From contig JBKQIY010000048.1 of NCBI GenBank assembly GCA_052148155.1, positions 11,131-75,130 on the forward strand: 64,000 bases of DNA, read 5' to 3'. This DNA is from Acidimicrobiia bacterium. Its GTDB lineage: Bacteria; Actinomycetota; Acidimicrobiia; IMCC26256; PALSA-610. The notes under the pieces are model-generated. The model was not told where the DNA came from. It saw only the letters and a program-made list of their open reading frames with translations, and made no database searches. Below, piece after piece: positions 23,692-41,753 of this stretch; the stretch's first letter is position 1, and each line of letters starts with the position of its first letter. The position numbers and the translations under genes were made by a program.

Positions 23692-23695
23692 CACG

Positions 23696-24525: not shown

Positions 24526-24669
24526 ATGGTTCTCGCGCAGCAGCTCATCGACGCGAGTAAAGAAGGCGGTGCCGCCTTCCTCGCCTTCGCGATCATGGTT
24601 TTCCTGTTTGCCGGCTCGCTGTTCTACATGGACAAGGTGCGTCGCCGCCGCGACGAGCGAGGCCGTTAA
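24526..24669 (+). CDS. Small (47 aa) single-TM protein, last gene of the operon
   Basis: ATG at 24526 preceded by GAGGAGG at a typical spacing. Sequence MVLAQQLIDASKEGGAAFLAFAIMVFLFAGSLFYMDKVRRRRDERGR: one TM followed by a basic tail. Confidence 0.5.
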   Translation: MVLAQQLIDASKEGGAAFLAFAIMVFLFAGSLFYMDKVRRRRDERGR

Positions 24670-24699
24670 GACACGGCCGCTGATGTCGTCGCGACGACA
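24661..24699 (+). terminator. Candidate terminator hairpins at the end of the bc-type operon
   Basis: GGCCG-N8-CGGCC spans the TAA stop (24661..24678), followed by the perfect 16-nt palindrome TGTCGTCGCGACGACA (24684..24699). No U-tract. Confidence 0.3.
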
Positions 24700-25179
24700 C
24701 ATCCGTCGCCACGACTGGGACCGCTGCGACTGCTGGGAACGCATCTCCGGGGCTGAAGATCGCGTCCTGGCGGGGCGGCCGCGAGACCGGCGTACGGAGA
24801 CACGGATCTGGCGCACAACACGCGCAACGTCGGTGACCGGTGGCTCACCGCGCACGGCATACTCGAGCGGACCGTTCGCGCATTCCGTCGTGAGCTGCGA
24901 CCGTTTCGGGATCCGGACGTTGCCGCGGCTGACCGCCCACCGCGGCGCACACCCCTCGCAGGACACGAGATGAGTCGAGCGCCTGTTTCGTTGTCGAGGT
25001 CGGGACCGCCCGTGATCGCGTGCCGGCAACGACCGTCGTCGACAGAACCTCGATCGGAGCCGTGGCCTGCCTGCACGTTGATTGCGTACCAGTCGGTCTC
25101 GGCTCGTTCAGCGGCACCCTCTCAGAGCCCTGACCGCGGCGGCACGGCGAGCACGCAAGACCGTGTACACCGATGAATG

Positions 25180-26490: not shown

Positions 26491-26515
26491 CTCGACGTCC
26501 GGCTGAGAGGTCGTC

Positions 26516-27499
26516 TCACGAGTGTTGGATGAGCTCCGCGACCTCGCGGGCGAAGTAGGTGACCACGATGTCGGCTCCGGCGCGCCTGATCGCGAGCAGG
26601 TGCTCCAAGGCGGTCGCGGTCCCGTCGAGCCAGCCGAGCTGTGCGGCGGCTTTCACCATCGCATATTCGCCGCTCACATGGTACGCGGCGACGGGAACGT
26701 CGAACGAGTTGCGGATCTGCGCGATCACGTCGAGATACGCCAGGGCCGGTTTCACCATCACGATGTCCGCGCCCTCTTCGACGTCGAGCGCGACCTCGGC
26801 GATCGCCTCACGTGCGTTCGCCGAGTCCATCTGGTATCCGCGGCGGTCACCGAACTGGGGTGCGCATTCGGCCGCGTCGCGGAACGGCCCGTACAGCGCG
26901 GACGCGTATTTCGCGGCGTACGCGAGGATCGCCACGTGCGAGTTCCCGGTGCTGTCGAGCGCATGACGGATTGCGCCGACCTGGCCGTCCATCATCCCCG
27001 ACGGTGCGATCACATCGGCGCCGGCGGTCGCCTGCGCGACCGCGATGGTCGCGTATCGTTCGAGGGTCGCGTCGTTGTCGACTTGACCGTCGTTCGTGAG
27101 GACACCGCAATGTCCGTGGTCGGTGTACTCGTCGAGGCAGTCGTCGGCCATCAACACGAGCGTGTCGCCGACTTCGTCGCGCAGTGTTCGCAACGCGATC
27201 TGCACGACACCGTCGGCCGCGTCGGCTTGCGAGCCGCGCGCATCTTTATGTTCGGGAATACCGAACAACATGACGGCCGGAACGCCGAGGTCGGCCAGTG
27301 CATGCACCTCTTTGCGGAGGCTTTCCTGGGTGTGTTGCACGACCCCCGGCATCGAAACCACCGGCTCGGGAGCGTCGATTCCTGCTTTCACGAACAGGGG
27401 GGCGACGAGGTCGTCGACCCGCAAGCGGTGTTCGGCAACCAGCCGCCGTAACGCGGGGGTGCGCCGCAAACGGCGCATCCGATGCTCAGGAAACGACAC
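26516..27499 (-). CDS. hemB: Porphobilinogen synthase (delta-aminolevulinate dehydratase)
   Basis: HemB-like sequence (RMRRLRRTPALRRLV, MVKPALAYLDVI, AYHVSGEYAM). Confidence 0.95.
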   Translation of the reverse strand: MSFPEHRMRRLRRTPALRRLVAEHRLRVDDLVAPLFVKAGIDAPEPVVSMPGVVQHTQESLRKEVHALADLGVPAVMLFGIPEHKDARGSQADAADGVVQIALRTLRDEVGDTLVLMADDCLDEYTDHGHCGVLTNDGQVDNDATLERYATIAVAQATAGADVIAPSGMMDGQVGAIRHALDSTGNSHVAILAYAAKYASALYGPFRDAAECAPQFGDRRGYQMDSANAREAIAEVALDVEEGADIVMVKPALAYLDVIAQIRNSFDVPVAAYHVSGEYAMVKAAAQLGWLDGTATALEHLLAIRRAGADIVVTYFAREVAELIQHS

Positions 27500-27515
27500 G
27501 CTGCGATGGTACCTG

Positions 27516-28994
27516 TCAGCGCCTGGAGAACTCTGCGCCGCCGAGCTGCGCGAGCAACACGTCGACGAGCCCGTCGAGCGTGTGCGGATCCGCCTCGGCG
27601 TCGATTCGCAGCCCGCGCTCGAGCGCAGTGGCGGAGGTCACCGGACCGATCGACACGACGGCCGGACACTCGTCGAGGGGCCCGACCGCGTCGCAGAAGT
27701 TCGTAACCGTCGACGACGACGTGAAAGTGACGGCATCGACGCCGCCCGTACGCAGGCAAGCCAGCGCCACCGGGTCGGGAACCACCGCGACGGTGCGGTA
27801 CACCGCGAGGATGTCGACGGTGTAGCCGCGCGCCGTGAGGCCTTCGGGGAGCACATCGCGGGCCGATGCCGCCCGCGGGATAAGCACCCTCGAGTCGGGC
27901 CCTCCAGGATCAGGGAACGCGGCCAGCAACGATTCGGCGACGAACCGTTCAGGGACGAGGTCGCCACGGATGCCATGCCGCGCGAGCGCCTGGTTGGTTC
28001 CCGGGCCGATCGACGCGACGTGGGCGCGGGCGAGCGCCCGGGCGTCAAGCCCGGCGGGTACGAGCCCACGTTCGAAGAACGCGTCGACACCGTTGGCCGA
28101 CGTGAACACCAACCATTCGTAACGATCGAGCGCAGGCAACTCGAACTCGACCGGCTCGAACGCGATCGACGGTAACTCGATCACTTCGGCGCCCAGCTGT
28201 TCGAGGCGTCCCCGCAGCTCGCTGGCCTGCTCGCGGGCGCGGGTCACGACGATGCGACGTCCGAACAACGGCCGGTGTTCGAACCAGCCGAGATCGAGGC
28301 CGGCCACGTCGCCGATCACTATCGCGCTCGGGGACTCGACCGCGAGCTGCGCGATCGTCGCGAGCGTCGCGCGCACGGTCTGCTGGTCCGGCCGGGTACC
28401 CCAACGCACCGCCGCGACCGGAGTTGACCCCGGACGGCCGCCGGCGAGCAAGGCTTGGGCGATGTCGGCGACGCGTCCGGCGCCCATCAACACGACGAGC
28501 GTTCCGCCAACTCGCGCGAGGGCTTCCCAGTCGGTGTCGGGACCGGCCTTGGTGGGATCTTCGTGGCCGGTGACGATCGTCACGCTGGTCGACAAACCGC
28601 GATGCGTCACCGGGATCCCTGCGTAGGCGGGCGCCGCGATCGCGCTGGTGACGCCGGGCACCACTTCGAAACCGACGCCGCCGTCGCGGCACGCTTCTGC
28701 TTCTTCACCGCCGCGCCCGAACACGAACGGGTCGCCGCCTTTCAACCGAACCACGTCGAGGCCGGCCGCGCCGCGCGCGACGAGGAGCTCGTTGATCTGT
28801 TCCTGCGCCATCGCGACGCGGCCCGGCGCTTTGCCGACATCGACGAGCTCGGCACCCGCGGGAACGAATCCGAGCAGCGCGGGCGACGCGAGACGGTCGT
28901 AGACGACGACGTCGGCCCGTCGCAACAGTTCCTCGCCGCGGCGGGTGAGCAGCCCTGGATCGCCGGGACCGGCACCGACCAGATAGACGGTCAT
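27516..28994 (-). CDS. cobA/hemD: Fusion protein: uroporphyrinogen-III C-methyltransferase / uroporphyrinogen-III synthase
   Basis: ATG at 28994 gives MTVYLVGAGPGDPGLLTRRGEELLRRADVVVYD (SUMT N-terminus), followed by a HemD-like C-terminal half. The remaining 5' part of ORF 27516..29783 overlaps hemC and is Arg/Ser-rich. Confidence 0.9.
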   Translation of the reverse strand: MTVYLVGAGPGDPGLLTRRGEELLRRADVVVYDRLASPALLGFVPAGAELVDVGKAPGRVAMAQEQINELLVARGAAGLDVVRLKGGDPFVFGRGGEEAEACRDGGVGFEVVPGVTSAIAAPAYAGIPVTHRGLSTSVTIVTGHEDPTKAGPDTDWEALARVGGTLVVLMGAGRVADIAQALLAGGRPGSTPVAAVRWGTRPDQQTVRATLATIAQLAVESPSAIVIGDVAGLDLGWFEHRPLFGRRIVVTRAREQASELRGRLEQLGAEVIELPSIAFEPVEFELPALDRYEWLVFTSANGVDAFFERGLVPAGLDARALARAHVASIGPGTNQALARHGIRGDLVPERFVAESLLAAFPDPGGPDSRVLIPRAASARDVLPEGLTARGYTVDILAVYRTVAVVPDPVALACLRTGGVDAVTFTSSSTVTNFCDAVGPLDECPAVVSIGPVTSATALERGLRIDAEADPHTLDGLVDVLLAQLGGAEFSRR

Positions 28995-29007
28995 CTCGGA
29001 AAGGAAT

Positions 29008-29904
29008 TCATCGAGCTCGTTCCACGTCGAGCACCGAACGGCCGCCTTTGCCGTCGAGCAAGTCGACGGCGGCTGCGACGCCGACCTCGATCGGATCCGA
29101 TCCGGCGACCCGGGTGCGCAGCACGATATGCCCGTCGGCCGCGGCGAGCAACGCGTCGAGGACCAGTGCACCGGTCGTACGGTCGAAACGCGCGAGCGCC
29201 CCACACGGCAACGAGCAACCGCCGCCAAGCTCGGCGAGGTAGGCACGTTCGGCTCGAACTTCGGTGTGCGCGGCTCGATCGTCGATTGCCGCGAGGCGGG
29301 CTTGTGTGCGCGGGTCGTCGGCTCGACATTCGACTCCCAGCGCGCCCTGCGCGGCTTGTGGCAGCACCACGGCAGGATCGAGGACCTCGCTGGCGTGGTC
29401 GCGCAGGCCGAGGCGATCGAGCGCCGCGACGGCGACGACGACGGCGTCGTGACCTTCGTCCACACGTTTGCGCAGCCGCGTCTCGATGCTGCCGCGTAAC
29501 GGTGCGAACACGAGGTCGGAGCGGGCGGCGGCGAGCTGGGCGCGACGGCGGACAGATCCGGTGGCGATCCGGCCGCCGGTCGGGATGGATTCGAGCGACG
29601 CGCCGACGAGCGCGTCACGCGGATCGCCACGTTCAGGTACGGAGGCGAGCACCAGGCCGTCGGCGGTGACCGACGGCAGATCCTTCGCGGAGTGAACCGC
29701 GAGATCTGCGCGTCCGTCCAGCACGGCTTGTTGGACCTCTTTGACGAAGACGCCGGTACCACCGATCGCGTGCAGGTCGGCACGCTGGTCGCGGTCGCCG
29801 GCGGTGGTGACGAACACGTACTCGACCGGTTCGCGCAGCAGTGCGCCGACGCGCTCGGCCTGCCAGCGCGCGAGGGCGCTGGCGCGCGTCGCGATCCGGA
29901 GCAC
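29008..29904 (-). CDS. hemC: Porphobilinogen deaminase (hydroxymethylbilane synthase)
   Basis: HemC-like sequence (LRIATRASALARWQAERV, GTGVFVKEVQQAVLDGRADLAVHSAKDLP, GGCSLPCGA). Confidence 0.95.
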   Translation of the reverse strand: MLRIATRASALARWQAERVGALLREPVEYVFVTTAGDRDQRADLHAIGGTGVFVKEVQQAVLDGRADLAVHSAKDLPSVTADGLVLASVPERGDPRDALVGASLESIPTGGRIATGSVRRRAQLAAARSDLVFAPLRGSIETRLRKRVDEGHDAVVVAVAALDRLGLRDHASEVLDPAVVLPQAAQGALGVECRADDPRTQARLAAIDDRAAHTEVRAERAYLAELGGGCSLPCGALARFDRTTGALVLDALLAAADGHIVLRTRVAGSDPIEVGVAAAVDLLDGKGGRSVLDVERAR

Positions 29905-29907
29905 GAG

Positions 29908-31179
29908 TTAGTCCTCTAACGGAGGAAGGTCGAACAGGGCGGCGAGCGCGTCGGCGTAGTAGTAGCCGCGCGGGGTGCCGGCCGCGTCTTTCACCCGCAC
30001 CGTCGGCTCGTGCAACAGTTTGTTGACGATACCTTCGGTCAGTGCCTCGACGACGGCGCGCTGATCGGGATCGAGTCCGCCGAGCTTCGCGCGGAATCGT
30101 GCGATCTCACCTGTCCGGACGCGCTCGCCGAGTTCGCGCAATGACGTGACGAGCGGCGCGACCTGCCGTCCGGTCCGGTCGGCGCGGTACCGTTCGATTT
30201 CAGCCGCGAGGATCTCTCGTACTTTGGTGATCTCGCGCCGCCGACGCTCGGCCGAGCGTTGCGCGTAGTCCTTCAGGTCGTCGAGGTCGAGCAGCGTGAC
30301 ATCGTTGACTTCGCGCACGCCCGGGTCGACGTCGCGCGGCAACGCCACGTCGACGACGAGCAGCGGCCGTCCACCGCGACACGCCATCACCATCTCGATG
30401 GTCGAGCGTTCGATGAGCACCTGCGCCGAAGCGGTCGAGGAGAGCAGCACGTCGGCGTCGACGAGCGTGTCGGCGATCTCGCTCAGCGGGATGGCCTCAC
30501 CGCCGATACGCGCCGCGGCTTGCTGGGCGCGCTCGAACGTCCGGTTTGCGATCCACACGCGATCCACGCCTCGCGAACGCAGGGTTGATGCGAGTCCGGT
30601 CCCCATCTGACCGGCACCGACGACGAGTACCTTCGCTCCGTCGAACGACCCGAGGTGCTCCGCCGCGACGGTCACGGCCGCCGACGGGATCGATACCGGA
30701 TGCCGGCCGATGCCGGTCTCGGTGCGGACCCGCTTGCCCGACTCGACCGCGTGGCGGAACAGTCCGGTCAGCTGGGGGGCGGTGCCTTCCCGCACGGCGG
30801 CCTGCCAGGCTTCGCGTACCTGGCCGAGGATTTCGCTTTCCCCGACGATCATCGAGTCAAGGCCGGCCGCGACGGCGAACAGATGCGCGACCGCCGCGTC
30901 GTCGTAGTAGGTGTACAGCAGGTCGGCGAAGTCTTCGGGCGCGGCTCCCGAATGTTCCGAAAGGAACGCGCTGACGTCACCGACGGCAGGATGAAAATGG
31001 GTGCAACGGGCGTAGACCTCGATGCGGTTGCAGGTCGACAGCACGACGACTTCGAGGAGGTGCTCGCGGGCGCTGAGGTCGTGGAGCACCTTGGCGAGCT
31101 GGTCTTCCGGGACCGTCATCCGCTCGAGCAGGTCAACGGGCGCCGTGCGGTGGTTGAGACCGACCACGATCAAAGACAC
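29908..31179 (-). CDS. hemA: Glutamyl-tRNA reductase
   Basis: GTG at 31179 gives VSLIVVGLNHRTAPVDLLERM (HemA N-terminus), then STCNRIEVY and the NAD-binding motif VLVVGAGQMG. Confidence 0.9.
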   Translation of the reverse strand: MSLIVVGLNHRTAPVDLLERMTVPEDQLAKVLHDLSAREHLLEVVVLSTCNRIEVYARCTHFHPAVGDVSAFLSEHSGAAPEDFADLLYTYYDDAAVAHLFAVAAGLDSMIVGESEILGQVREAWQAAVREGTAPQLTGLFRHAVESGKRVRTETGIGRHPVSIPSAAVTVAAEHLGSFDGAKVLVVGAGQMGTGLASTLRSRGVDRVWIANRTFERAQQAAARIGGEAIPLSEIADTLVDADVLLSSTASAQVLIERSTIEMVMACRGGRPLLVVDVALPRDVDPGVREVNDVTLLDLDDLKDYAQRSAERRRREITKVREILAAEIERYRADRTGRQVAPLVTSLRELGERVRTGEIARFRAKLGGLDPDQRAVVEALTEGIVNKLLHEPTVRVKDAAGTPRGYYYADALAALFDLPPLED

Positions 31180-31808
31180 GAGTTCAGGAGCTCCTTCGCG
31201 TCGGCGACGCGTCCGGCGCGCACGAGGTCCACGATGCCGGAGTCGAACGCCTGTTGCCAATCGGCGCTCTCAGTTGAACGGCCGGATGCCCGCAAGCCTT
31301 CCCGAGCTTCGGAAAGCAGTTCGAGGAGGGTTTCGTACTCAGGACCGAGCTCCTCGGTCAGGAACCGTCGGAGGTACGCGGCGAGCGCGGGGCTGCGTCC
31401 GCCCGTGCCGACCGCGACGACGAGGTCGGCGCGCCGGATCACGGACATCATCGTAAAGGAGCAATTCTTCGGGTCGTCGGCACTGTTGACCCAGACCCGG
31501 CCCGCCTCGCCCGCGGCGTAGACCGAGGCGTTGACCGCCGGGTCGTCGGTCGCGGTCAACGCGAGCCAGGCGCCTTCGAGGTCGGTGGCGCGGAACTCAC
31601 GCTCGATCATTTCGCAGCGGCCGGCATCGGCGTAGGCCCGCACTTCGGGCGCGACGGTGGGAGCGACCACGACCACGTCGGCGCCGAGCTCGAGGAGCGG
31701 CTCGATCTTGCGGGCGGCGATGCGGCCCCCGCCGACGACGACGACCCGTCGCCCGCGCACGACCAGGTTGACCGGAAGCCCGCCGAGCGCGGCGCGCACC
31801 TCGGTCAT
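31170..31808 (-). CDS. Precorrin-2 dehydrogenase / sirohydrochlorin ferrochelatase (CysG N-terminal-domain type)
   Basis: ATG at 31808 gives LPVNLVVRGRRVVVVGGGRIAARKIEPLLELGADVVVVAP, a siroheme-synthase N-terminal Rossmann fold. Confidence 0.8.
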   Translation of the reverse strand: MTEVRAALGGLPVNLVVRGRRVVVVGGGRIAARKIEPLLELGADVVVVAPTVAPEVRAYADAGRCEMIEREFRATDLEGAWLALTATDDPAVNASVYAAGEAGRVWVNSADDPKNCSFTMMSVIRRADLVVAVGTGGRSPALAAYLRRFLTEELGPEYETLLELLSEAREGLRASGRSTESADWQQAFDSGIVDLVRAGRVADAKELLNSCL

Positions 31809-31815
31809 CACCGCA

Positions 31816-32490
31816 TCACCCGGCTTTCCCGGCCGACTGGCGATCGGGCGCGACGCCGCGCCGAAGTTGGTAGAAGGACAGGATTTGCAGCTCGATCGCC
31901 AGGTCGACCTTCCGGACCGACACAGTGTTGGGGACGGCCAGGACCGCGGGTGCGAAGTTGAGGATGGAGCGCACACCGGCGTCCACCAACCGGTCGGCGA
32001 CCTCTTGGGCGACGGGCGCCGGCGTGGCGATCATGCCGATCGTGATCTTTCGTTCGTCGACGATGTGGGCCAGCGCGGCGATCGGCTCGATCGCCAGCTC
32101 GCCGACCTCGCCGCCTACGAGGTCGTCGTCGGCGTCGACGAGCGCGACGATCCGAAAACCGCGCGCACCGAAACCACGGTAGTTGGCGAGCGCCCGGCCG
32201 AGGTTTCCGATTCCGACGATCACCACCGGCCAGTCGCGCGTGAGCCCAAGTTCGCGTGAGATCTCGTGGAGGAGGTAGTCGACGTCGTAGCCGACGCCCC
32301 GGGTGCCGTACGAGCCGAGGTACGAAAGGTCCTTGCGGACCTTGGCCGCGTTGACGCCGGCGAGCTCGGCGAGCCGTTCGGAAGAGATGGTCGCCACGTC
32401 GTGGTCGGCGGCTTCGAGCAGCGCCCGGTAGTACAGAGGCAGGCGCGCGACGGTCGCCTCGGGGATCCGGCGTCGTGCAGTGTCGCCCAC
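31816..32490 (-). CDS. rex: Redox-sensing transcriptional repressor Rex
   Basis: Rex-like N-terminal winged helix (IPEATVARLPLYYRAL, SSERLAELAGVNAAKVRKDLSYLGSYGTRGVGYDV) and NADH-binding Rossmann motif VVIVGIGNLGRALANY. First gene of a rex-hem operon, as in Streptomyces. Confidence 0.95.
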   Translation of the reverse strand: MGDTARRRIPEATVARLPLYYRALLEAADHDVATISSERLAELAGVNAAKVRKDLSYLGSYGTRGVGYDVDYLLHEISRELGLTRDWPVVIVGIGNLGRALANYRGFGARGFRIVALVDADDDLVGGEVGELAIEPIAALAHIVDERKITIGMIATPAPVAQEVADRLVDAGVRSILNFAPAVLAVPNTVSVRKVDLAIELQILSFYQLRRGVAPDRQSAGKAG

Positions 32491-32539
32491 CCCGCTCCTC
32501 TCACCAGGTCCGACATGTCCAGTTCGCAGGGTACCGACT

Positions 32540-32557
32540 TTGTGACCGCATTCTCAA
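32540..32557. promoter_or_regulatory. Candidate Rex operator (ROP-like inverted repeat)
   Basis: TTGTGACCGCATTCTCAA matches the Streptomyces ROP consensus TTGTGAA-N4-TTCACAA at 12 of 14 specified positions. It lies 50-67 nt upstream of the rex start. Confidence 0.65.
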
Positions 32558-32618
32558 AGTGTGGAGTTCGGGTCCGTACCGTGCCCGTCGGCCCGCCCGA
32601 CGTACGCTCGGCACGCCC

Positions 32619-33419
32619 ATGGTCGCCGGTCTTGCCTTCATCGCCACCGCGATCGCCACGGTGTTCGCCCAGGCGACCGCGGTTCGGTGGTCACGGTCGC
32701 GGGCACCGCATCAGGGCGCGTGGACGGTGGCGTTGGCGCTGTTCGCGCTGGCGTCGGCCGCGCTCGCGACGGGCGCCTCGACCGGCTGGGATCGGGGCAC
32801 GTTCCGCGCGTTTTATCTTCTCGGCGCGGTGATCAACGTCCCGTGGCTCGCGCTGGGGACCGTGTACCTGTTGATGGGCCGCCGGGTCGGGAACCGCGTC
32901 CGGGCCGGGCTGCTCGTGTTCACCGGCTTCGGGATCGGGGTGATGCTCGCAGCGCCGATGCACGGCACCATCGCCGGCAGTCGGATCCCGGTCGGCAAGG
33001 ATCACTTCGGCGTGTTGCCACGTGCGCTGGCCGGCACCGGCAGTGGGCTCGGAGCCATCGTGGTGTTCGGCGGCGCGGCCTGGTCGGCAGTTCGCTTCGC
33101 CCGGTCACGCCGGCCTGGGTCGGGCCGCCTGGCCGGAGGCAACGGGCTGATCGCGTTGGGCACCCTCGTGTTGTCGAGCGGCGGCCTGCTGCAGGGCATC
33201 GTCGGCTCGGATGAGGCGTTCGCGTTGACGACCGCGACGGGGATCGCGGTGATCTACGCAGGTTTCGTCGTCGCGTCGAGCGTTCGACGTCAGGCGGTCG
33301 TCTCGTCCGACGGGGTTGGGGACGAACCGGCCTCTGACGGCAGCTCACGTCGCAACAACTTGCCGGCAAACGATCGGGGCAGCTCATCAACGAGTTCGAC
33401 CCGGGTCGGGAGCTTGTAG
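32619..33419 (+). CDS. Uncharacterised polytopic membrane protein
   Basis: From ATG at 32619 there are about six hydrophobic segments (MVAGLAFIATAIATVFA, WTVALALFALASAALA, FYLLGAVINVPWLALGTVYLL, LLVFTGFGIGVMLAAP and others). The 3' end overlaps the convergent acyl-CoA synthetase by 130 nt. Confidence 0.55.
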   Translation: MVAGLAFIATAIATVFAQATAVRWSRSRAPHQGAWTVALALFALASAALATGASTGWDRGTFRAFYLLGAVINVPWLALGTVYLLMGRRVGNRVRAGLLVFTGFGIGVMLAAPMHGTIAGSRIPVGKDHFGVLPRALAGTGSGLGAIVVFGGAAWSAVRFARSRRPGSGRLAGGNGLIALGTLVLSSGGLLQGIVGSDEAFALTTATGIAVIYAGFVVASSVRRQAVVSSDGVGDEPASDGSSRRNNLPANDRGSSSTSSTRVGSL

Positions 33420-34816
33420 CGCGCGAGGCGGCGGCCGGTGTGGCGCAGCAATTCGACCGGATCGGGATTGCGGCCGGGTTTGGGGACCACGTACGCGACG
33501 ATGGTCTCGCCGGTGCGGGGATGAGCCTCGCCGACGACGGCGACATCGGCGACGTCGGCGTGTTGGGCGATCACGTGCTCAACTTCGCCGGGATACACGT
33601 TGAATCCCGACACGATCACCACGTCTTTGACTCGTTCGACTAACGCGAGCCAGCCGTCGTCGTCGGCGACGCCGATGTCGCCGGTGTGCAGCCAGCCGTC
33701 ACGGTCGAGGACGCGTGCCGACGCTTCCGGGTCGCCCCAATATCCGGCGAACACGTTTGCTCCGCGTACGAGGATCTCGCCCGGATCGCCGCGGAGGACG
33801 TCCTGACCGTCGTCGTCTGTGAGACGGACTTCAACGCCCGGCAAGGGCGGCCCCACCGAACCTGGGCGGGGCCGCGCCGCGATCGCGCTTGTCGTGACCA
33901 CCGGTGACGCTTCGGTGAGTCCGTATCCGTCGTGGACGTCGATTGCGAAACGAGCTCGCATCGCGGTCACGAGCTCCGGTCGCAGCGGCGCCGCGCCGGA
34001 AACACACAGCCGGACCTGCTCGAACGGGTTCGCCGGCGCGACGGCCGGATCGAGGGCGATCCACGCCTCGAAGATCGCCGGGACCGCGGCAACGACGGTG
34101 ACGCGATCGGCTTGGACCCGGGTCAGGGTTTCGTTGGGATGGAAGTGGTCGACCAACGACACACCGCCGCCCGCCATCAATGAGAGGCCGAGCACCACGT
34201 TGAGCCCGAACACGTGGAACAACGGAAGCACCGCGAGCGCGACGTCGTCGCGGCCTACCCGTAAGCCGGGATGTGCCTGCATCTGGGTCAGGTTGGCCGA
34301 CAACGAGCCGTGGGTCAGCATCGCCGGCTTGGGCGCGCCCGCTGTCCCGGCCGTGAAGAGCAACACTGCGAGATCGTCGGCCGCGCGCGTGACCGGCGAA
34401 CAGGGATCGGCCGGAAGTTGTTGTGGGTCGGCGCCGTCGTAGACGAACACGGGAACCTCGGTCGCACACAGGGCGCAGGCGCGGCGCGCGAGATCGGCGT
34501 AGGCGCTCGACGCAACGACCATTGCGGGCTCGACGACCGACAGCTCGCGTGCGAGTTCAAGTGACGGCGATGCGCCGTTGACCGGAACTGCGACCCCTCC
34601 TGCGGTCAGGATCGCAAGGTAGGCGCGCACGAACGCGAGCTCGTTGCCGGCCAGCAGCACCACGCGCGCTCCGGGCTCGATCTGGGTCGCCAGCCGGGCG
34701 GCCAACCGGCCGGAGGCGACGGCGAGTGCGCCGAACGTCTCGCGCTGGGGCGCGACGATGGCGGCGTCGTCGGGCGCGGTGTTCGCAGCCTCCAATAGGA
34801 CAGCACCCAGATTCAC
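33290..34816 (-). CDS. AMP-dependent acyl-CoA synthetase/ligase
   Basis: AMP-binding motifs LLFTAGTAGAPKPAMLTHGSL, DGYGLTEASP, TGDIGVADDDGW and FAGKLLRREL. GTG at 34816 chosen as start. Confidence 0.9.
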   Translation of the reverse strand: MNLGAVLLEAANTAPDDAAIVAPQRETFGALAVASGRLAARLATQIEPGARVVLLAGNELAFVRAYLAILTAGGVAVPVNGASPSLELARELSVVEPAMVVASSAYADLARRACALCATEVPVFVYDGADPQQLPADPCSPVTRAADDLAVLLFTAGTAGAPKPAMLTHGSLSANLTQMQAHPGLRVGRDDVALAVLPLFHVFGLNVVLGLSLMAGGGVSLVDHFHPNETLTRVQADRVTVVAAVPAIFEAWIALDPAVAPANPFEQVRLCVSGAAPLRPELVTAMRARFAIDVHDGYGLTEASPVVTTSAIAARPRPGSVGPPLPGVEVRLTDDDGQDVLRGDPGEILVRGANVFAGYWGDPEASARVLDRDGWLHTGDIGVADDDGWLALVERVKDVVIVSGFNVYPGEVEHVIAQHADVADVAVVGEAHPRTGETIVAYVVPKPGRNPDPVELLRHTGRRLARYKLPTRVELVDELPRSFAGKLLRRELPSEAGSSPTPSDETTA

Positions 34817-35179
34817 GCGCCGGGAGGCTACGTCCCTTGGCCGCTGAGCTCCGGTTTGGGTCGTGCACGACGCCGATACAGCCAGAAACACTACCTAGAG
34901 TGGTAAATCTGGGCTGTATCGCTCAAGGATCGCGCGCTCGGTGTCGTTATTTGGGTATCACGCGAGCGGGCCGCACGGTCGGCGGGGATTGGGAGACCCA
35001 TCCTCGACGTTGTGGGGACCGCTTCGCCCGAGATCGGGGGTTCCGGTCGTGGTTGTGGGCGTGTGGCCGCTCCGGTCTTCCCGGGCGGTCACGCAACGTA
35101 GCCTCCCAGCCCGCCCCAAAGCGTCCGCACTGCGGCCGGACCCCGAACTCGATCGTTGCCTGGCGTCGCGTGCAGGCTG

Positions 35180-35266
35180 CTACATCCGAAATGCGAACTG
35201 CACGATTGACGCGAGCAGAATGAGCACGAGCAGCGCGACGAGCACCAAACTCGTTCCGGCCCTCAC
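35180..35266 (-). CDS. Hypothetical 28-aa hydrophobic micropeptide coupled to the DUF62 gene (speculative)
   Basis: GTG at 35266 forms a GTGA overlap with the upstream stop, and AAGAGG lies 8 nt upstream. Sequence (M)RAGTSLVLVALLVLILLASIVQFAFRM is a single TM-like helix. There is no other support. Confidence 0.2.
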   Translation of the reverse strand: MRAGTSLVLVALLVLILLASIVQFAFRM

Positions 35267-36156
35267 GCGCGAGCCTCTTTGCGTCCGAGCCCGACGTGCA
35301 CACCGCGCTCGGGCTGCCCAGCGCTCGCTTCGGTCGACACCGTGATGGCGCTCGCGGCGCGAACGCCGAGCTCGACGGCTGCCGACCGACGGTCGAGCGC
35401 GATCGCGCACATGCCGTAGGAGTCGACGAGCACGACCAGCTCCGCCGGCTTGGCGTCGGCGAACGTTCGCACCCATCGTGCTCGGCGGCCCGATCCCACT
35501 CCGGCCGCGTCGGACACGATGATTTCCAGCGCGTCGCCGATCTTGGCGCCCGCCTCTTCGAGCTGTTCGGGCGCGACGTTGAGTTGGCAGTTGCCGTAGC
35601 GGTCGACCCACAAGACCTCGCCCGTGATCCGACCGTCCCCGTCGACGTTCGGGAGCGGCACGAGCGCCGGGGTGAGCAGCACTGGATCCACCTCGGGTCC
35701 TAACGCTTCGAGCGGCAGCCCGACCGCGAGGCGGGCGGCCGCGGGGGCCATCACGTCGCGGCCGGCGAACGTCGGACCGGGCGCATGGAGCTGATATTCC
35801 TCGGCGGTGATCTCGACGACTCGGCGGGGCCCGCCGAGCATGGCGACCGCCGGCGCCAACAGCCCGTTGTCAGGGCCGACAATCGACGCGTTTTCGACGT
35901 CGACGGCGATGCAGCGTCGCTCGGTGCCGACACCCGGGTCGACGACCGCGAGCACGACACCTTCGGGCAGATACTGGATCGCGCGTACGAGGGCGAGTGC
36001 CCCCGCCCGGACGTCGAAGGGCGGGATTTCGTGGGTGACGTCGACAATGCGGAGTTCGGGGGCGATATCGAGCATTACCGCGTGACAGACACCGACGAAC
36101 TCGTCCGCACGGCCGTAGTCCGATAGGAACGACACGAATGGAGGACGATCAGCCAC
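35263..36156 (-). CDS. S-adenosyl-L-methionine hydroxide adenosyltransferase family protein (DUF62)
   Basis: N-terminal FVSFLSDYGRADEFVGVCHAVML and VVDPGVGTERR are typical of the DUF62 / fluorinase-chlorinase-like family. GTG at 36156. Confidence 0.75.
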   Translation of the reverse strand: MADRPPFVSFLSDYGRADEFVGVCHAVMLDIAPELRIVDVTHEIPPFDVRAGALALVRAIQYLPEGVVLAVVDPGVGTERRCIAVDVENASIVGPDNGLLAPAVAMLGGPRRVVEITAEEYQLHAPGPTFAGRDVMAPAAARLAVGLPLEALGPEVDPVLLTPALVPLPNVDGDGRITGEVLWVDRYGNCQLNVAPEQLEEAGAKIGDALEIIVSDAAGVGSGRRARWVRTFADAKPAELVVLVDSYGMCAIALDRRSAAVELGVRAASAITVSTEASAGQPERGVHVGLGRKEARA

Positions 36157-36264
36157 GACGCCGACGCTACCCCCGAAAGAAAAACGCTCGGGAAACCGAG
36201 ACGCGACCCGTCCGCGGACGCGCACCTACTCGGTGTGCCTCGGTGTCGACTTCGACCAGCTGCG

Positions 36265-36459
36265 CTATCCCGCTTGGGTGTAGCCCGACGCGAGATACGT
36301 GTCGACGTCGCCTTCGGCGACGCGAAACGACCGGCCTACACGCACAGCCGGCAGCTCGCCAGCTTTGATCAATCGGTAGACGGTCATCGACGAAACCCGC
36401 ATCAGGTCCGCCACCTCCTGAACCGTCAAGAAGCGCGCTTTGCTCAATCCATTGCCCAC
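36265..36459 (-). CDS. Small excisionase-family (MerR-like) helix-turn-helix DNA-binding protein
   Basis: 64 aa. LTVQEVADLMRVSSMTVYRLIKAGELPAVRVGRSFRV is the excisionase-type HTH. It lies near proC, as does the small HTH gene next to proC in mycobacteria (from memory). Confidence 0.8.
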   Translation of the reverse strand: MGNGLSKARFLTVQEVADLMRVSSMTVYRLIKAGELPAVRVGRSFRVAEGDVDTYLASGYTQAG

Positions 36460-36601
36460 GCGGAACTCCCTACGCCACCCGCTCCCATAAGGGTAGATGG
36501 CTGCGCCACGAGTTGTCGAGGGTCAACTAGCGGGGCGAGTGACTAGTCACACCTCGCGCGGGGGCCGCGACGGTCGGGCGTGGCCGCCGAATGCGGGCCG
36601 A

Positions 36602-37390
36602 TCAGATCGTCCGGCCGACGACTTCGGGGAGCGCGGCCTCGAGGAGCGGGCGGTACGCACCGGGAGCCCGGTCGGTCCACATCGGCACCACAAGACATGA
36701 GCGGTCCCGGCGCCGGGTCAGCGCGAGGGAGCAATGGTCGAGTCCGGCCAACGCGATCACCTCGATGCCGGCATCGATCGCGACGTCGGCGAACGGCCCG
36801 TCGGCGATGACCAGCGCGGGTCGGGGCACGAGGAACAGCCACTCTTGGGGAGCTTCGGGACCACGCGTGTCACACAGCGAATGTCCGTCGGTCACCACCG
36901 CGACTCCGTCGACCCAGCGGATCGCGCGCGCGGCTCGGCCGTCAACGCGCAGCGGAGGAGAGTCGTCATCGTCGGCCACGTCGGCGCCGCAGCTGCGAGC
37001 CAGACGGGCGAGCGCGAGCGACACGCTGAGGAGCGACGCGGGCTGACTCGTCGCCAACGAGATATGCGCGCCGGTGCTCGCCACCTCGACGATCCGATCG
37101 ACGGCCCGGGCCATGGCGGCGATCGTGAGCTCCGGATCGATCCGCGGGTCTGCGATCGTGGCGCCGAACACGGCATGGACTGCGGTCCATGCCTCGTCGA
37201 GGAGGACGGATTGTGTCCGGTCGCGTGCGGCCCGTTCGACGAGCCGGCGAAGCTCCGAGGGTCCGGGACCGACCGACCGGCCGGCCACATGTGACCGTTC
37301 CAAGCGCTGCGCGAGCGTCGGTGGTGGCGCCAACTGTCGATGTCCGACCCTCGACTCGAGCCGGGGAGGGCGATTGCGCGCCTTGCTCAT
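36602..37390 (-). CDS. Conserved hypothetical protein (262 aa), translationally coupled to proC
   Basis: ATG at 37390 forms an ATGA overlap with the proC stop. Composition is protein-like downstream of it. The rest of the 539-aa ORF 36602..38221 overlaps proC in another frame and is Arg-rich. Confidence 0.6.
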   Translation of the reverse strand: MSKARNRPPRLESRVGHRQLAPPPTLAQRLERSHVAGRSVGPGPSELRRLVERAARDRTQSVLLDEAWTAVHAVFGATIADPRIDPELTIAAMARAVDRIVEVASTGAHISLATSQPASLLSVSLALARLARSCGADVADDDDSPPLRVDGRAARAIRWVDGVAVVTDGHSLCDTRGPEAPQEWLFLVPRPALVIADGPFADVAIDAGIEVIALAGLDHCSLALTRRRDRSCLVVPMWTDRAPGAYRPLLEAALPEVVGRTI

Positions 37391-38193
37391 CCGGAGGCGC
37401 CCAGCTCCCTCGAGCGGCGAGTCGCGGCGCTGACCGCATCGAGGATGGCCGCCCGCAGCCGTGCGGATTCCAGCTCTCGCAGACCGGCGGCGGTCGTCCC
37501 GCCCGGGGAGGTCACCGCGGCCCGGAGGGACGCCGGACCGTCGTGACTCTGCGCCAGCAGCGTGGCCGAGCCGAGCAGGGTCTGCACCACGAGCCGCTCC
37601 GACACGTCTCGTGCGAGGCCGACGAGCACTCCGGCTTCGATCATGGCTTCGGCGACGAGGAAAATGTAGGCCGGTCCCGAGCCGGAGAGGCCAGTGACCG
37701 CGTCGAGTGCCGCCTCGCCGACGATCACGACGATGCCGACCGCGCCGAGCAGCCGTGACGCAAGCTCCAGGTGTTCGGCGTCGGCGTGGCGGCCGCCCGC
37801 GATCGCCGACGCACCCAATCCGACGAGCGCGGGCGTGTTGGGCATCGCACGGACGACCGGCCGGCCCGGCACCAACGCCTCGAGCGTGGCGAGGGTCACT
37901 CCGGCCGCGATCGACAGCACGAGGGTCGAGGCGCGAAGCGACGACTCGGCGGCGTGCAGGCTCGCGTCGATGTCGCCCGGTTTCACCGCCACGATCACGA
38001 CATCCGCATCGGCGACCGCCCACGCCGGGCTCGGCACGATGCGGACTTTCGGAAACTCCCGCTCGAGTTCGCGGCGACGTTCGGCGTCGACCTCCGCAAC
38101 CGCGAGCTCGTCGGGATCCCAGCCACCTTCGAGCAGGCCACCGAGCAGCGCGGAACCCATCTTTCCGCCGCCGATCAAGGCCACACTCGTCAT
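37387..38193 (-). CDS. proC: Pyrroline-5-carboxylate reductase
   Basis: VALIGGGKMGSALLGGLL Rossmann N-terminus and the C-terminal VTSPGGTTAAGLRELE motif. Confidence 0.9.
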   Translation of the reverse strand: MTSVALIGGGKMGSALLGGLLEGGWDPDELAVAEVDAERRRELEREFPKVRIVPSPAWAVADADVVIVAVKPGDIDASLHAAESSLRASTLVLSIAAGVTLATLEALVPGRPVVRAMPNTPALVGLGASAIAGGRHADAEHLELASRLLGAVGIVVIVGEAALDAVTGLSGSGPAYIFLVAEAMIEAGVLVGLARDVSERLVVQTLLGSATLLAQSHDGPASLRAAVTSPGGTTAAGLRELESARLRAAILDAVSAATRRSRELGASG

Positions 38194-38411
38194 CGCGCGA
38201 GGCTAACCCGACCCCCACCACGGTCGAGGCGAACGATCACTGCACACAGTCGGGCCCGAGGAACTTTGGAACGGCCCCGCACTTCCCCGAACGGAACCGC
38301 CCCTCCCGCACCTCGGGCCCGGCAGCTTGCCGCCGCGCTCGCGACGGCAAAATGACCGTAGCACTCCCGGTCAATACAACACCAAGCATCTTAAAACATT
38401 CTTATACATGT

Positions 38412-38876
38412 TCAGATGCGTCGGAATGCGATCCCGACCGCGGTTTGGAACCACCGTTCGACGAGCTCGTAGAGCACGCCGATGATGCGATCGAGCTCGT
38501 CGACGTCGAGATGTTCGAGGAGCACGCGGCCCACGAGATAGCAGTCGCCGTCGGGTCCGATCGAGAAGTGCGCGCCGTAGGTCGTGTGATTGCGCGCCAG
38601 CATGAACCGGTACAGCTCTTCGCGATGCGCGCTCGGATCGGGAAGGAAGTACACCTCGTAGCGGAGCGTCCGCTGATGCAGGTCGAAATAGATCGTGGCG
38701 GCGTCACGTCCGTCGCAGCCGAAGCGCACATACCACCGTGGGATCTGCGGGTCGTATTCGACAACCTGCACCCACGGTTCGAGGGCGACGGGTCCTTCGA
38801 GATGCGCCGCGATCAGCGCATGTTTCGCGGCGCGGAAGCCCTCGTCGAGCGCGAGGTCGCGGCCGTCGACGGTCAC
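38412..38876 (-). CDS. YbjN-like / putative sensory-transduction-regulator-like protein downstream of mshA
   Basis: GTG at 38876 lies 1 nt after the mshA stop. The 154-aa acidic protein contains YFDLHQRTLRYEVYFLPDP and LVGRVLLEHLDVDELDRIIGVLYELVE. The family call comes from memory of the mshA-neighbouring gene in mycobacteria. Confidence 0.5.
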   Translation of the reverse strand: MTVDGRDLALDEGFRAAKHALIAAHLEGPVALEPWVQVVEYDPQIPRWYVRFGCDGRDAATIYFDLHQRTLRYEVYFLPDPSAHREELYRFMLARNHTTYGAHFSIGPDGDCYLVGRVLLEHLDVDELDRIIGVLYELVERWFQTAVGIAFRRI

Positions 38877-38877
38877 G

Positions 38878-40125
38878 TCAGTCGCAGCGCACGAGACCCC
38901 GGGCGACGAGATCGCCGTACAGGCGTCGCAGCCGCGCCGCGGTGATGCTCCACGAGTACTTGCGTGATCGAGCCGACGCGACCGCCCCGATCTCCGCCGC
39001 GAGCACGGGATCTTCAAGCAACATCGCGACCGGAGCGGCGTACGCCGCAGGATCACGATCGTCGACGAGGAAACCGGTGGCGCCGTCGTCGACGAGCGAC
39101 CGCAGCCCACCGACCGACGCCGCGACCACGGGCGTGCCGCAGGCGGCGGCTTCGAGCGCAACCAGGCCGAAGGACTCGGCGCGCGAAGGCACGATGCACA
39201 CGTCGGCAGCTCGATAGAAGTCGGCCAGTGTGGTGTGCGGCTGGGGTGGCACAAAATGCACGTTGGACGCGACGCCGAGCTCGTGCGCGAGGTCGCGGAC
39301 GCGGGCGAGTTCGCGTTGGCCGTCGGGGCCGCTCGGGCCGCCGACCACCAGGAGCATCGCATTCGGGTCGTGCAGCTCCGCCAGGCAGCGCACCGCCAGG
39401 CCGACCCCTTTCAGAGGTTGGATCCGTCCGGCGAACAGCAACATGCGCCGACCGTCGAGTCCGAGCCGATCTTTGGCGACACGGGCATCGGCGGGGAAGA
39501 ACACCGAGTGGTCGACGCCCGGCGGGACGACCTCGATCCGTTCCGGCACCGCGCCGTAGCGCGTCGCGAGTTGCTCGCGCTCAGAGTTGGTGGACGCGAG
39601 CATCAGGTCCGAACACGCGATCACCTGGTGCTCGACCCGCGCCCGTTCTTCGGGGTCGTCGTCGATTCCGGCATCGGCTTTGACGCGCGCCAGCGTGTGG
39701 AACGTCGCGACCATCGGGAGATCGCGCAGATGCTTGAGCTTGTGCGCGACCGCGCCGGACAACCAGTAGTTCGCGTGCAACACCTCGACTGGGGGACCTG
39801 CGTCGAGAATCCTGGCGGTTTCGGCGACGAATTCGTCGACGAGGCTGGGCAGCTCGTAACGAGGGATCGCCGTCTGCGGGCCGGCCTTCACGTGAACGAC
39901 CCGGAACCCAGGTTCGACGTCGACCACGTGAGATTGGGTCGGGTCCTCGGCGCGCGTGTACACGTCGCACGAGACACCGGCGCGGGCGAGCGCCGACGCG
40001 AGCGCTCGCACATAGACGTTCATGCCGCCACCGTCGCCGGCGCCGGGCTGGGCCAGCGGCGAAGTGTGCATGCTGAAGACCGCCACGCGCCGAACGGCGC
40101 CGGACGATTCGTCGCGGCCAGACAT
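38878..40125 (-). CDS. mshA: D-inositol-3-phosphate glycosyltransferase (mycothiol biosynthesis)
   Basis: ATG at 40125 gives RRVAVFSMHTSPLAQPGAGDGGGMNVYVRALASALARAG, the characteristic MshA N-terminus, followed by a GT4 C-terminal domain (SRAESFGLVALEAAACGTPVVA). Confidence 0.9.
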   Translation of the reverse strand: MSGRDESSGAVRRVAVFSMHTSPLAQPGAGDGGGMNVYVRALASALARAGVSCDVYTRAEDPTQSHVVDVEPGFRVVHVKAGPQTAIPRYELPSLVDEFVAETARILDAGPPVEVLHANYWLSGAVAHKLKHLRDLPMVATFHTLARVKADAGIDDDPEERARVEHQVIACSDLMLASTNSEREQLATRYGAVPERIEVVPPGVDHSVFFPADARVAKDRLGLDGRRMLLFAGRIQPLKGVGLAVRCLAELHDPNAMLLVVGGPSGPDGQRELARVRDLAHELGVASNVHFVPPQPHTTLADFYRAADVCIVPSRAESFGLVALEAAACGTPVVAASVGGLRSLVDDGATGFLVDDRDPAAYAAPVAMLLEDPVLAAEIGAVASARSRKYSWSITAARLRRLYGDLVARGLVRCD

Positions 40126-40177: not shown

Positions 40178-40555
40178 TCAGCCGGCGGCGTCTTCGCGGT
40201 CGTCTTGTTGGAAGGAACGGTAGATCTCGAGCAGGACCTGTTTTTGGCGCTCGGAAAGGCTCGGGTCCCGCAGCACGGTGGTGACGAGGTCGGGCGGTTC
40301 GCCCTGTTCGTCGAGAATCCCTGCTCGCACGTAGAGCGTCTCAGCGGAGATGCGCAACCCGCGAGCGATGCCTTGGAGGATCTCGGCGGAAGGTTTCCGC
40401 AAGCCACGCTCGATCTGGCTGAGATAGGGATTCGAGATGCCGGCGAGCTCGCTCAGCTTCCGCAACGACAGCCGCGCGTTGCGGCGCTGGTCGCGGATGA
40501 AGTCACCCAGATCGTGCAGTCGCGTCTCGAGCGACTCCAGCGACTCAGATCTCAT
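40178..40555 (-). CDS. XRE-family helix-turn-helix transcriptional regulator
   Basis: LSLRKLSELAGISNPYLSQIERGLRKPSAEILQGIARGL. Its ATG at 40555 forms an ATGA overlap with the stop of the upstream RsiG-like gene. Confidence 0.85.
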   Translation of the reverse strand: MRSESLESLETRLHDLGDFIRDQRRNARLSLRKLSELAGISNPYLSQIERGLRKPSAEILQGIARGLRISAETLYVRAGILDEQGEPPDLVTTVLRDPSLSERQKQVLLEIYRSFQQDDREDAAG

Positions 40556-41070
40556 CCCATCGCCCCGGCGACTCGGCGGTCGGCGATCACGCGATCGAGC
40601 GCGTCGATGACGACGTGCAGCTCGGCGCGCAGGTCGGAAAGCTCGCGTTCGAAGCTGCGCAGTGCTGCGAGAATCGAGTTGAGCTCGTCGAGCGCAAGGA
40701 CGGGCAGTTTCGCGAGCGTCGTGTCGACCACGAGTTGTTCGCGGTGATCGGGCCAGTGAAGTTCGATCGTCGGCGGATCGGCGGCCGGTGCGCCGCGGGT
40801 GGTGGTGATGGTCGAACGCCCGGACTCGACGCTCAGGATCCGTGGCAAATCGGCGACGAGGTCGCCGACGGAGCCGCCACGCTCTCGCCGCGCCCGTTCG
40901 GCTTCGAGGATCTCCATCCGCGCCTGCGCGAGACGGCGAAAGTACGACAGCGCGAGTTCGGCCTGAGCGCACTCGTCGTGCATTGCGTGCAGATCGTCGA
41001 GCGAGCGACTGTCGAGTTCAGTCGCATAGTCGGGGTCGAGTAGACGCTGAACGCGTTCCGTGGCAATCAA
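40552..41070 (-). CDS. RsiG-like coiled-coil protein (candidate c-di-GMP-binding anti-sigma factor)
   Basis: 172 aa and predicted helical. Two copies of the RsiG-type signature: E38-x3-S-x2-R-x3-Q-x3-E53 (ELALSYFRRLAQARME) and E141-x3-S-x2-R-x3-H-x3-D156 (ERELSDLRAELHVVID). Start uncertain: TTG at 41070 directly abuts the AGGGAG sequence. Confidence 0.6.
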   Translation of the reverse strand: MIATERVQRLLDPDYATELDSRSLDDLHAMHDECAQAELALSYFRRLAQARMEILEAERARRERGGSVGDLVADLPRILSVESGRSTITTTRGAPAADPPTIELHWPDHREQLVVDTTLAKLPVLALDELNSILAALRSFERELSDLRAELHVVIDALDRVIADRRVAGAMG

Positions 41071-41142
41071 CTCCCTAATAATGGTGCGCGATCAGGCTAT
41101 CGCGGTAGGTGCGCGACACAGACTCTGGTCCGTCGTCGAGTC

Positions 41143-41397
41143 TCACCCGCCGCTGACCGGCGGAAGGACGGCGACCTCGTCACCATCGGCGAGCACGGTG
41201 GCCCGGCCGTCGGACGGCTCGTCGCCGTTCACCCAGACCCGCGAGTTCGCGAGCACCAGGGCGAAGGACGTCCCGTAGACCGACACCGCGGAGTCGAGCA
41301 GCGATCCAACGGTCGGCACCTGGCTCTGGTCGTACTCGTCGTTCCCGCAGCCTGCGGCTTCGCGCGCCGCGGCAAACAGCCGCAGCGTCACGGTCAC
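41143..41397 (-). CDS. moaD: MoaD/ThiS-family sulfur-carrier protein
   Basis: 84 aa, beta-grasp-like, ending in the diagnostic ...LPPVSGG. GTGA overlap with the upstream gene. Confidence 0.8.
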   Translation of the reverse strand: MTVTLRLFAAAREAAGCGNDEYDQSQVPTVGSLLDSAVSVYGTSFALVLANSRVWVNGDEPSDGRATVLADGDEVAVLPPVSGG

Positions 41398-41753
41398 GGG
41401 AAACTGCTGTCGACATTGGTTCGCGCGGCCGGATAGGCATCGAGACGTTCCGCGACGATCGGTTCGCCGGTGATCTCGTCGATGCCGTAGCTGCCGTCGT
41501 CGAGTCTTCCCAACGCGGCTTCGATTTCGGCCAGGTCGTGCTCGAGCTGTTCGAGAATCGCGACGTCCTTCTCGCGCTCGAATGTCTCCGAAGCCTGGTC
41601 GGCCGGATCCGTGACGTGCGCGAGATCGCCGACCTGGTCGGCCGCGTCCTGGTCGAGGCCCTCTTGGTGCAGTCCCTGGATGAGGCCCCGCACGCGTTCT
41701 TTTTCGGCCTCGAGGCGACGACGGGATGCGTCTTCGTCGAAGTGTTGTGTCAT
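41394..41753 (-). CDS. DksA/TraR-family protein lacking the zinc-finger cysteines
   Basis: Acidic coiled-coil N-terminal part plus C-terminal LGRLDDGSYGIDEITGEPIVAERLDAYPAARTNV. This aligns with the DksA C4 finger region, but all four Cys positions are replaced. Confidence 0.6.
   Translation of the reverse strand: MTQHFDEDASRRRLEAEKERVRGLIQGLHQEGLDQDAADQVGDLAHVTDPADQASETFEREKDVAILEQLEHDLAEIEAALGRLDDGSYGIDEITGEPIVAERLDAYPAARTNVDSSFP

Follow-up and report, generated by a model that had tools for sequence, protein, structure and literature searches.

Which sigma factor would answer to a putative cyclic di-GMP (c-di-GMP) sensor that is encoded 22 kilobases (kb) away from a flagellar sigma gene? 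The question is raised by a 64,000-nucleotide (nt) stretch of contig JBKQIY010000048.1 from an Acidimicrobiia bacterium, which is called the window here in its full length. A small gene at 40552..41070 of this window encodes a homologue of RsiG, the anti-sigma factor of WhiG. To our knowledge, the RsiG-WhiG pair is the only case of a sigma factor under direct c-di-GMP control. A first-pass annotation of the window proposed that c-di-GMP gates the local flagellar sigma through this protein. Our analysis points to another partner: the gene probably encodes a twin-motif RsiG orthologue, coupled to an xre gene, that sequesters a WhiG2-type sigma encoded elsewhere in a c-di-GMP-dependent manner. 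The gene and its two signatures are located as follows:

40552..41070, minus strand: rsiG homologue, twin-motif RsiG-family protein of 172 amino acids (aa), TTG start
40912..40959, minus strand: c-di-GMP signature 1, ELALSYFRRLAQARME, aa 38-53 on helix alpha1, E-x3-S-x2-R-x3-Q-x3-E
40603..40650, minus strand: c-di-GMP signature 2, ERELSDLRAELHVVID, aa 141-156 on the C-terminal long helix, E-x3-S-x2-R-x3-H-x3-D

The 172-aa protein is a twin-motif RsiG. It matches the Pfam profile PF22802 (RsiG) in two stretches with an E-value (E) of 2.9e-19 and 69 bits against a gathering cut-off of 27, and a phmmer search of the PDB retrieved Streptomyces venezuelae RsiG (6pfj_T, E 3.7e-5, covering aa 12-165 of the homologue), together with 6pfv and, on helix 1, the single-motif RsiG of Rubrobacter (7LQ2-4). 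An hhalign comparison of 23 relatives with 12 Streptomyces RsiGs gave a probability of 97.3% (E 1.8e-11, 161 columns). The register of the motifs is kept in both the phmmer and the hhalign alignments, with ELALSYFRRLAQARME opposite S. venezuelae EADLSYVRRMLQGRID and ERELSDLRAELHVVID opposite EQQISRRRHHLQRTAD, so that the signatures are placed as in the crystallised S. venezuelae complex RsiG-(c-di-GMP)2-WhiG. Homology in these profile searches, the check that the first-pass annotation had itself suggested, is clear and upholds the family identity given there. The RsiG fold, two long antiparallel helices plus a conserved linker, is also present in the predicted structure. An AlphaFold2 model built on the alignment (predicted local distance difference test, pLDDT, 80.8; predicted template modelling score, pTM, 0.74) has long helices at residues 24-63 and 127-171. 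With this model as query, Foldseek retrieved from the PDB only the RsiG chains of 6PFV/6PFJ at a probability of 1.0 (template modelling score, TM, 0.59-0.67); the top match was 6pfv_T (TM 0.63-0.66) and the first non-RsiG match had an E of about 1.

A regular-expression scan of the six-frame translation of the window recovered both signatures exactly where they had been placed before, and confirmed the description of a helical protein with two E-x3-S-x2-R-x3-[Q/H]-x3-[D/E] signatures; only one further match to the relaxed signature occurs in the whole window. Composition-preserving shuffles of the RsiG homologue produced at least one motif at a frequency of 8e-4 and two motifs in 0 of 200,000 cases. 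Among 23 homologues, the residues E38, S42, R45, Q49 and E53 of signature 1 are invariant and E141, S145, R148, H152 and D156 of signature 2 are at least 90% conserved, a pattern that holds across homologues with identities as low as 47%. The E, S, R and Q/H positions are thus satisfied in both motifs, while the final position is D in motif 2 and E in motif 1. The latter is a conservative departure from Asp that is fixed in the clade. Of 201 clade members, 161 combine a Q..E first motif with an H..D second motif. This state is the stably maintained norm, so the Q-to-H change in the second repeat, which had been singled out as unusual, is normal for this clade. Histidine often stands in for glutamine, as reported for motif 1, and it is able to stack in the same way (Schumacher et al. 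2021, PMC8325347). The TTG start of the gene is probably right, because homologues begin at the same residue (MIATERV or LIATERV). A GGGAG sequence abuts this TTG without a spacer (41065..41080, minus strand), an unusual Shine-Dalgarno spacing.

A protein search with the RsiG homologue returned 432 relatives, mostly of 171-172 aa and mostly metagenomic, and a scan of a genome collection yielded 45 loci, the closest of which (CAVSNP010000006.1) has 94% RsiG identity. The members of this clade are uncultured soil and freshwater metagenome-assembled genomes (MAGs). In keeping with a restriction of RsiG to Actinomycetota, 43 of the 45 loci come from MAGs labelled Acidimicrobiia, Actinomycetota or Actinomycetes; the remaining two are labelled "uncultured Burkholderiales", probably through binning errors. 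Twin-motif RsiGs were previously described in three of four Acidimicrobiales genomes (Schumacher et al. 2021, PMC8325347), and the gene is a further member of the family in a class where RsiG has been on record since 2021.

According to a recent preprint (Denis et al. 2026, PMC12871210), actinobacterial WhiG homologues split into the clades WhiG1 and WhiG2. There, WhiG1 is described as linked to flagellar clusters with variable contact residues, and the WhiG1 of Geodermatophilus obscurus did not bind RsiG (no two-hybrid binding; AlphaFold3 interface pTM, ipTM, of 0.14), whereas WhiG2 correlates with RsiG (r = 0.88), conserves the contacts and binds RsiG (ipTM 0.86). The two clades recognise similar promoters and no anti-sigma factor is known for WhiG1-type sigmas (same preprint). 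Transferred to the window, a c-di-GMP dimer would be bound between the two signature helices, as sequence and fold suggest. At high c-di-GMP, RsiG would sequester a WhiG2-type sigma of the sigma-28 family with K/G/R contacts, and would release it when c-di-GMP falls. This WhiG2 partner would probably be encoded elsewhere in the genome and not be the flagellar-cluster sigma at 63040. The rsiG gene itself is translationally coupled with a highly conserved xre just upstream of mshA-ybjN, and conserved synteny shows co-expression of these genes, probably on a joint transcript. We infer the sequestration of a WhiG2 from the literature together with the failure of the local sigma to show the WhiG2 signature. 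About 1.5 megabases (Mb) separate rsiG from whiG in S. venezuelae (PMC7005675), and an unlinked sigma partner would therefore be normal.

Several points weigh against this reading. There is no WhiG2-type sigma in the window or within 10 kb of rsiG in the 45 genome loci, and in 80 metagenome loci the 4 kb on either side of xre hold no sigma either. The distinction between WhiG1 and WhiG2 is, in the preprint, drawn from one tested species (G. obscurus) plus residue conservation (PMC12871210). Moreover, motif 1 ends in Glu instead of Asp and motif 2 has His instead of Gln, and c-di-GMP binding by this exact variant is a prediction.

The strongest competitor is the proposal that the c-di-GMP-loaded RsiG homologue sequesters the flagellar-cluster sigma at 63040 itself. 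The genes concerned, present in the window as first described, are:

63040..>64000, plus strand: FliA/WhiG-family sigma, WhiG1-like, cut by the window end
62216..62860, minus strand: NarL/VraR-type response regulator directly upstream of flgN, the usual flgM position (full-length match to 7ve6_A, E 3e-17)
58233..62109, minus strand: late flagellar operon flgN-flgK-flgL-fliW-csrA (Pfam FlgN, FlgK_D1, Flagellin_N/C, FliW, CsrA)
61618..62109, minus strand: flgN (Pfam FlgN)
59012..59890, minus strand: flgL (Pfam Flagellin_N/C)
58592..59011, minus strand: fliW (Pfam FliW)
58233..58481, minus strand: csrA (Pfam CsrA)

The proximity of rsiG to a sigma-28-family gene that stands beside flgN-flgK-flgL-fliW-csrA speaks for this proposal, as does the lack of a known anti-sigma factor for WhiG1-type sigmas (PMC12871210). 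The residues of the sigma factor speak against it. The protein reaches 196.8 bits with the FliA/WhiG subfamily model TIGR02479 (cut-off 189.6) and aligns with S. venezuelae WhiG (6pfv_A) at an E of 1e-40, while it scores 177 bits with the NCBI WhiG equivalog NF004935, whose cut-off is 343. The c-di-GMP contacts K57, G61 and R62 of WhiG are replaced by Q67, S71 and E72; at the position of G61, a clash of any side chain with the ligand is predicted, and R62 has given way to an acidic residue. At the sigma-4 positions T235, L236, Y239, E240 and L242, which contact RsiG, the window sigma has I, G, F, E and R, so that only E240 is kept (one of five). It thus lacks both sets of residues that mark WhiG2, the sigma-2 contacts to c-di-GMP and the sigma-4 contacts to RsiG.

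When the window sigma was searched against a representative library of 1.84 billion proteins and the best 150 matches were taken, the K/G/R signature was found in none of these representatives. The contact positions vary across all of them and all are WhiG1-like, while close relatives keep Q-x3-[S/A]-[E/D] at the c-di-GMP contact positions. Two candidates for WhiG2-like paralogues, P0190 and P0270, carry R-G-R in sigma-2 but are WhiG1-like in sigma-4 and were rejected. A tblastn search with S. venezuelae WhiG found no second FliA/WhiG sigma in the window, and no GGDEF, EAL or PilZ gene was seen there. Taken together, membership of the FliA/WhiG family, a position within five genes of flagellar genes and variable contacts fit a WhiG1-like sigma, an assignment based on residue signature and gene context. 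Since the window sigma fits WhiG1, c-di-GMP gating of it by RsiG, as first proposed, is not supported. Its Q/S/E contacts, the single retained RsiG contact and the 177 bits against 343 all argue in the same direction, and so does the failure of WhiG1 to bind RsiG in G. obscurus (PMC12871210). The rsiG gene is, in addition, syntenic with xre-mshA and not with flagellar genes, and no sigma lies within 10 kb of it in the 45 loci.

The sigma gene is divergent from the string of response regulator, flgN, flgK, flgL, fliW and csrA. No match to FlgM was found in the open reading frames (ORFs) scanned between 55.4 and 64 kb, where it has to be considered that FlgM is short and divergent and that the cluster may extend past the window end. 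The earlier remark that no flgM is visible before flgN thus stands for the ORFs tested, and this would agree with a replacement of FlgM by RsiG. As a clue specific to this window it does not hold: nearly every flagellar cluster in actinobacteria lacks FlgM (Denis et al. 2026, PMC12871210), which makes the missing flgM a phylum-wide feature. We therefore regard sequestration of the sigma at 63040 by RsiG as unlikely, and the residue signature likewise makes flagellar control through this sigma unlikely. An indirect effect of c-di-GMP on flagellar and chemotaxis genes through a WhiG2 is possible, as the promoters of WhiG1 and WhiG2 are similar.

The surroundings of the sigma gene offered some additional observations. 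Beyond sigma-4, the protein has a C-terminal tail of about 40 aa with G292, R296, R297, Y301, A-A-V-A, R314 and L315 at aa ~290-316, conserved in roughly 100-110 of the best 150 representatives, while S. venezuelae WhiG (278 aa) stops just after the aligned sigma-4 region. The excerpts of Denis et al. 2026 (PMC12871210) contain no mention of this tail. As WhiG1-type sigmas have no known anti-sigma factor, it could be a regulatory or docking element. Matches to a sigma-28 promoter were not above chance window-wide. The one plausible-looking site is a sigma-28-like TCAA-N16-TACCGAAA upstream of the sigma gene (62968..62994, plus strand), which may indicate autoregulation of the sigma, and a weaker CTCG-N17-GCCGATCC lies upstream of flgN (62110..62215, minus strand). 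The receiver domain of the NarL-type regulator is degenerate (Pfam Response_reg 15.8 bits against a cut-off of 30.2), with PDLVVVGQ by eye where the phospho-acceptor Asp is expected, which suggests an atypical, possibly phosphorylation-independent regulator. A 327-aa ORF after csrA (57182..58165, minus strand) was rejected as a shadow ORF, the real gene being a class-III aminotransferase (56732..58228, plus strand, E 4e-64), which leaves csrA as the last gene of the late flagellar operon. Unlike in Bacillus subtilis, where hag comes next, there is no gene for a filament flagellin behind csrA.

If RsiG does not act on the sigma nearby, could it act on the regulator with which its gene overlaps? 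The neighbourhood of rsiG comprises the following genes:

41394..41753, minus strand: DksA/YteA-like protein, upstream of rsiG (TIGR02890, E 1e-24, below the cut-off)
41143..41397, minus strand: ThiS/MoaD-like protein, upstream of rsiG, overlapping the DksA/YteA-like gene by 4 nt
40178..40555, minus strand: xre, XRE-family helix-turn-helix regulator of 125 aa (HTH_3, E 2.9e-12)
38878..40125, minus strand: mshA-like GT4 glycosyltransferase, separated by 52 nt from xre, which precedes it on this strand
38412..38900, minus strand: ybjN-like gene, final member of rsiG-xre-mshA-ybjN (Pfam YbjN, E 1.1e-7)

The stop of rsiG (GGA TGA) and the start of xre (ATG AGA) share four nucleotides, ATGA at 40552..40555 within GGATGAGAT, and the overlap noted in the first pass is thereby confirmed from the DNA. 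The gene order rsiG-xre-mshA-ybjN was found in all 43 genome loci with downstream sequence, and an overlap of 4 nt or 1 nt between the xre start and the rsiG stop in 36 of 43. The overlap persists down to 55% RsiG identity, and in more remote loci the two genes are 1-133 nt apart. The mshA-like product matches the NCBIfam model TIGR03449 (mycothiol_MshA) over its full length (E 5.9e-123) with 410.7 bits, which is under the cut-off of 462.5 yet far above every other family. The helix-turn-helix of XRE is nearly invariant across the clade. Its nearest solved structures in the PDB are XRE proteins of the DdrO and ClgR type (E about 1e-7, helix-turn-helix only), and with 37.5 bits against a cut-off of 170 it falls outside NCBIfam ClgR. 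From these matches, the xre product is best assigned as a generic member of the XRE family.

A metagenome search from the XRE side gave 80 loci (L049-L128). Where the sequence reaches far enough downstream, xre is in most cases directly followed by mshA, with or without rsiG. In the 68 loci with 600 nt or more upstream of xre, rsiG is adjacent to xre in 38, one gene away in 11, and missing upstream in 19, including 11 with more than 2.5 kb of upstream sequence. The coupling of rsiG and xre is real and lineage-typical, but the linkage of XRE with mshA is closer and more widespread than that with rsiG. Of the earlier emphasis on an XRE partner, the conserved arrangement stands, while the partnership as such is qualified by the tighter XRE-mshA linkage. 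We interpret the arrangement as conserved synteny and co-expression; it does not amount to proof of a protein interaction. The gene contexts point to XRE-mshA as a widespread, uncharacterised mycothiol regulatory unit in Actinomycetota.

A functional RsiG-XRE pair, in which RsiG, whether loaded with c-di-GMP or not, would act on XRE by binding or modulation and thereby on mshA-ybjN and mycothiol synthesis, would account for an overlap that persists in 36 of 43 loci despite the divergence of RsiG, and for the adjacency of the two genes in more than half of the assessable metagenome loci. S. venezuelae rsiG has no xre neighbour, which makes the pairing lineage-specific and maintained. The pair is nevertheless broken in the at least 11 loci where xre has no rsiG upstream and in the 11 more where a gene stands between, and overlaps of 4 nt and 1 nt are common among other, unrelated neighbours in the window (nuo genes; moaD/dksA-like). 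We also know of no RsiG that binds anything but WhiG. In its broader form, a working pair that feeds mshA-ybjN (mycothiol, redox buffering) or other targets, with, as a milder variant, a WhiG2 that shares promoter specificity with the flagellar WhiG1, the idea is rather improbable; the specific modulation of XRE by RsiG is very unlikely. If true, an RsiG-XRE pair would represent an output of RsiG-type sensors beyond sigma sequestration.

Least probable of all is the loss of c-di-GMP binding in a helical protein derived from RsiG, which would then have another role or none, because, although neither motif fits the strict E-x3-S-x2-R-x3-Q-x3-D consensus (D-to-E in motif 1, Q-to-H in motif 2), the variant residues are conserved in 161 of 201 homologues with five positions per motif at 90% or more, Glu for Asp is conservative, and many accepted RsiGs have His where Gln is expected, a His that was judged able to stack on guanine (PMC8325347).

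Some features of the metagenome loci and of the wider window are worth recording beside these arguments. In ten loci (L070, L071, L074, L076, L078, L080, L081, L093, L107 and L117), xre is preceded by rsiG at a distance of 1.1-1.5 kb, with a single unassigned gene in between, and L126 is an eleventh locus with an intervening gene, where the gap is just 375 nt. We tested whether this gene is the acetyltransferase that follows S. venezuelae rsiG, which was ruled out. The RsiG of L117 is closest to the Streptomyces type, a hint that the placement of rsiG ahead of xre-mshA is old. The DksA/YteA-like and ThiS/MoaD-like genes are syntenic with rsiG in most related loci. A scan for sigma-70 promoters and terminators around rsiG-xre-mshA gave nothing useful. 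Positions 1..38200 of the window hold core housekeeping genes, with the nuo operon, cytochrome bc, hemA/C-D/B/L, rex, proC and a gene for a 64-aa HTH_17 protein.

With a twin-motif RsiG that probably acts on a distant WhiG2, the RsiG family gains a large, uncultured, apparently flagellated clade of Acidimicrobiia. This rsiG homologue does not explain what takes the place of FlgM in actinobacteria, since the nearby flagellar sigma belongs to a type to which RsiG does not bind. The practical value lies in annotation and in the choice of a motile, non-sporulating lineage for studies of the targets of an RsiG-WhiG2 switch. What is fresh is of modest interest: the conservation of rsiG-xre-mshA as a string, and the additional observations on the WhiG1-like sigma. 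Synteny of xre-mshA with rsiG is not mentioned in Schumacher et al. 2021 (PMC8325347), and the complete string rsiG-xre-mshA-ybjN, absent from the RsiG papers cited here, is a modest new point.

Compared with known systems, the protein is most like S. venezuelae RsiG (AmfC, vnz_19430; 6PFJ/6PFV), with which it shares the Pfam family, the predicted fold and one in-register motif per long helix. The two helices share about 30% identity, which fits the internal duplication, and in both species the gene is unlinked to the (in our case predicted) sigma partner. The differences concern identity (about 26%), length (172 against about 215 aa, the long N-terminal tail being missing), the end of motif 1 (E instead of D), the H instead of Q in motif 2, and the gene that follows, an overlapping xre in the window and an acetyltransferase in S. 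venezuelae. Unlike the S. venezuelae host, the host of the window also carries flagellar genes. As an aside, many NCBI records of Streptomyces RsiG (P0272-P0390) bear the name "ABC transporter substrate-binding protein", which looks like a propagated misannotation, while UniRef has "RsiG family protein". The motif helix of Rubrobacter radiotolerans RsiG (7LQ2-7LQ4) aligns with helix 1 of the window protein (E about 0.01), but that RsiG has about 85 aa and one motif and forms a homodimer, whereas the window RsiG has both motifs in one chain. With the Acidimicrobiales RsiGs listed by Schumacher et al. 2021 (Ilumatobacter coccineus YM304_37910, Acidithrix ferrooxidans AXFE_25810 and Ferrithrix thermotolerans), which were compared by description, it shares the bacterial class and the twin-motif architecture. 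FlgM, which is secreted and acts as the anti-sigma factor of FliA/SigD, is not homologous to RsiG; like RsiG it controls a sigma-28-family factor, and its usual position upstream of flgN exists in the window. Finally, the sigma factor at 63040 matches WhiG1 as described by Denis et al. 2026, with a position beside flagellar genes and contacts that are not conserved.

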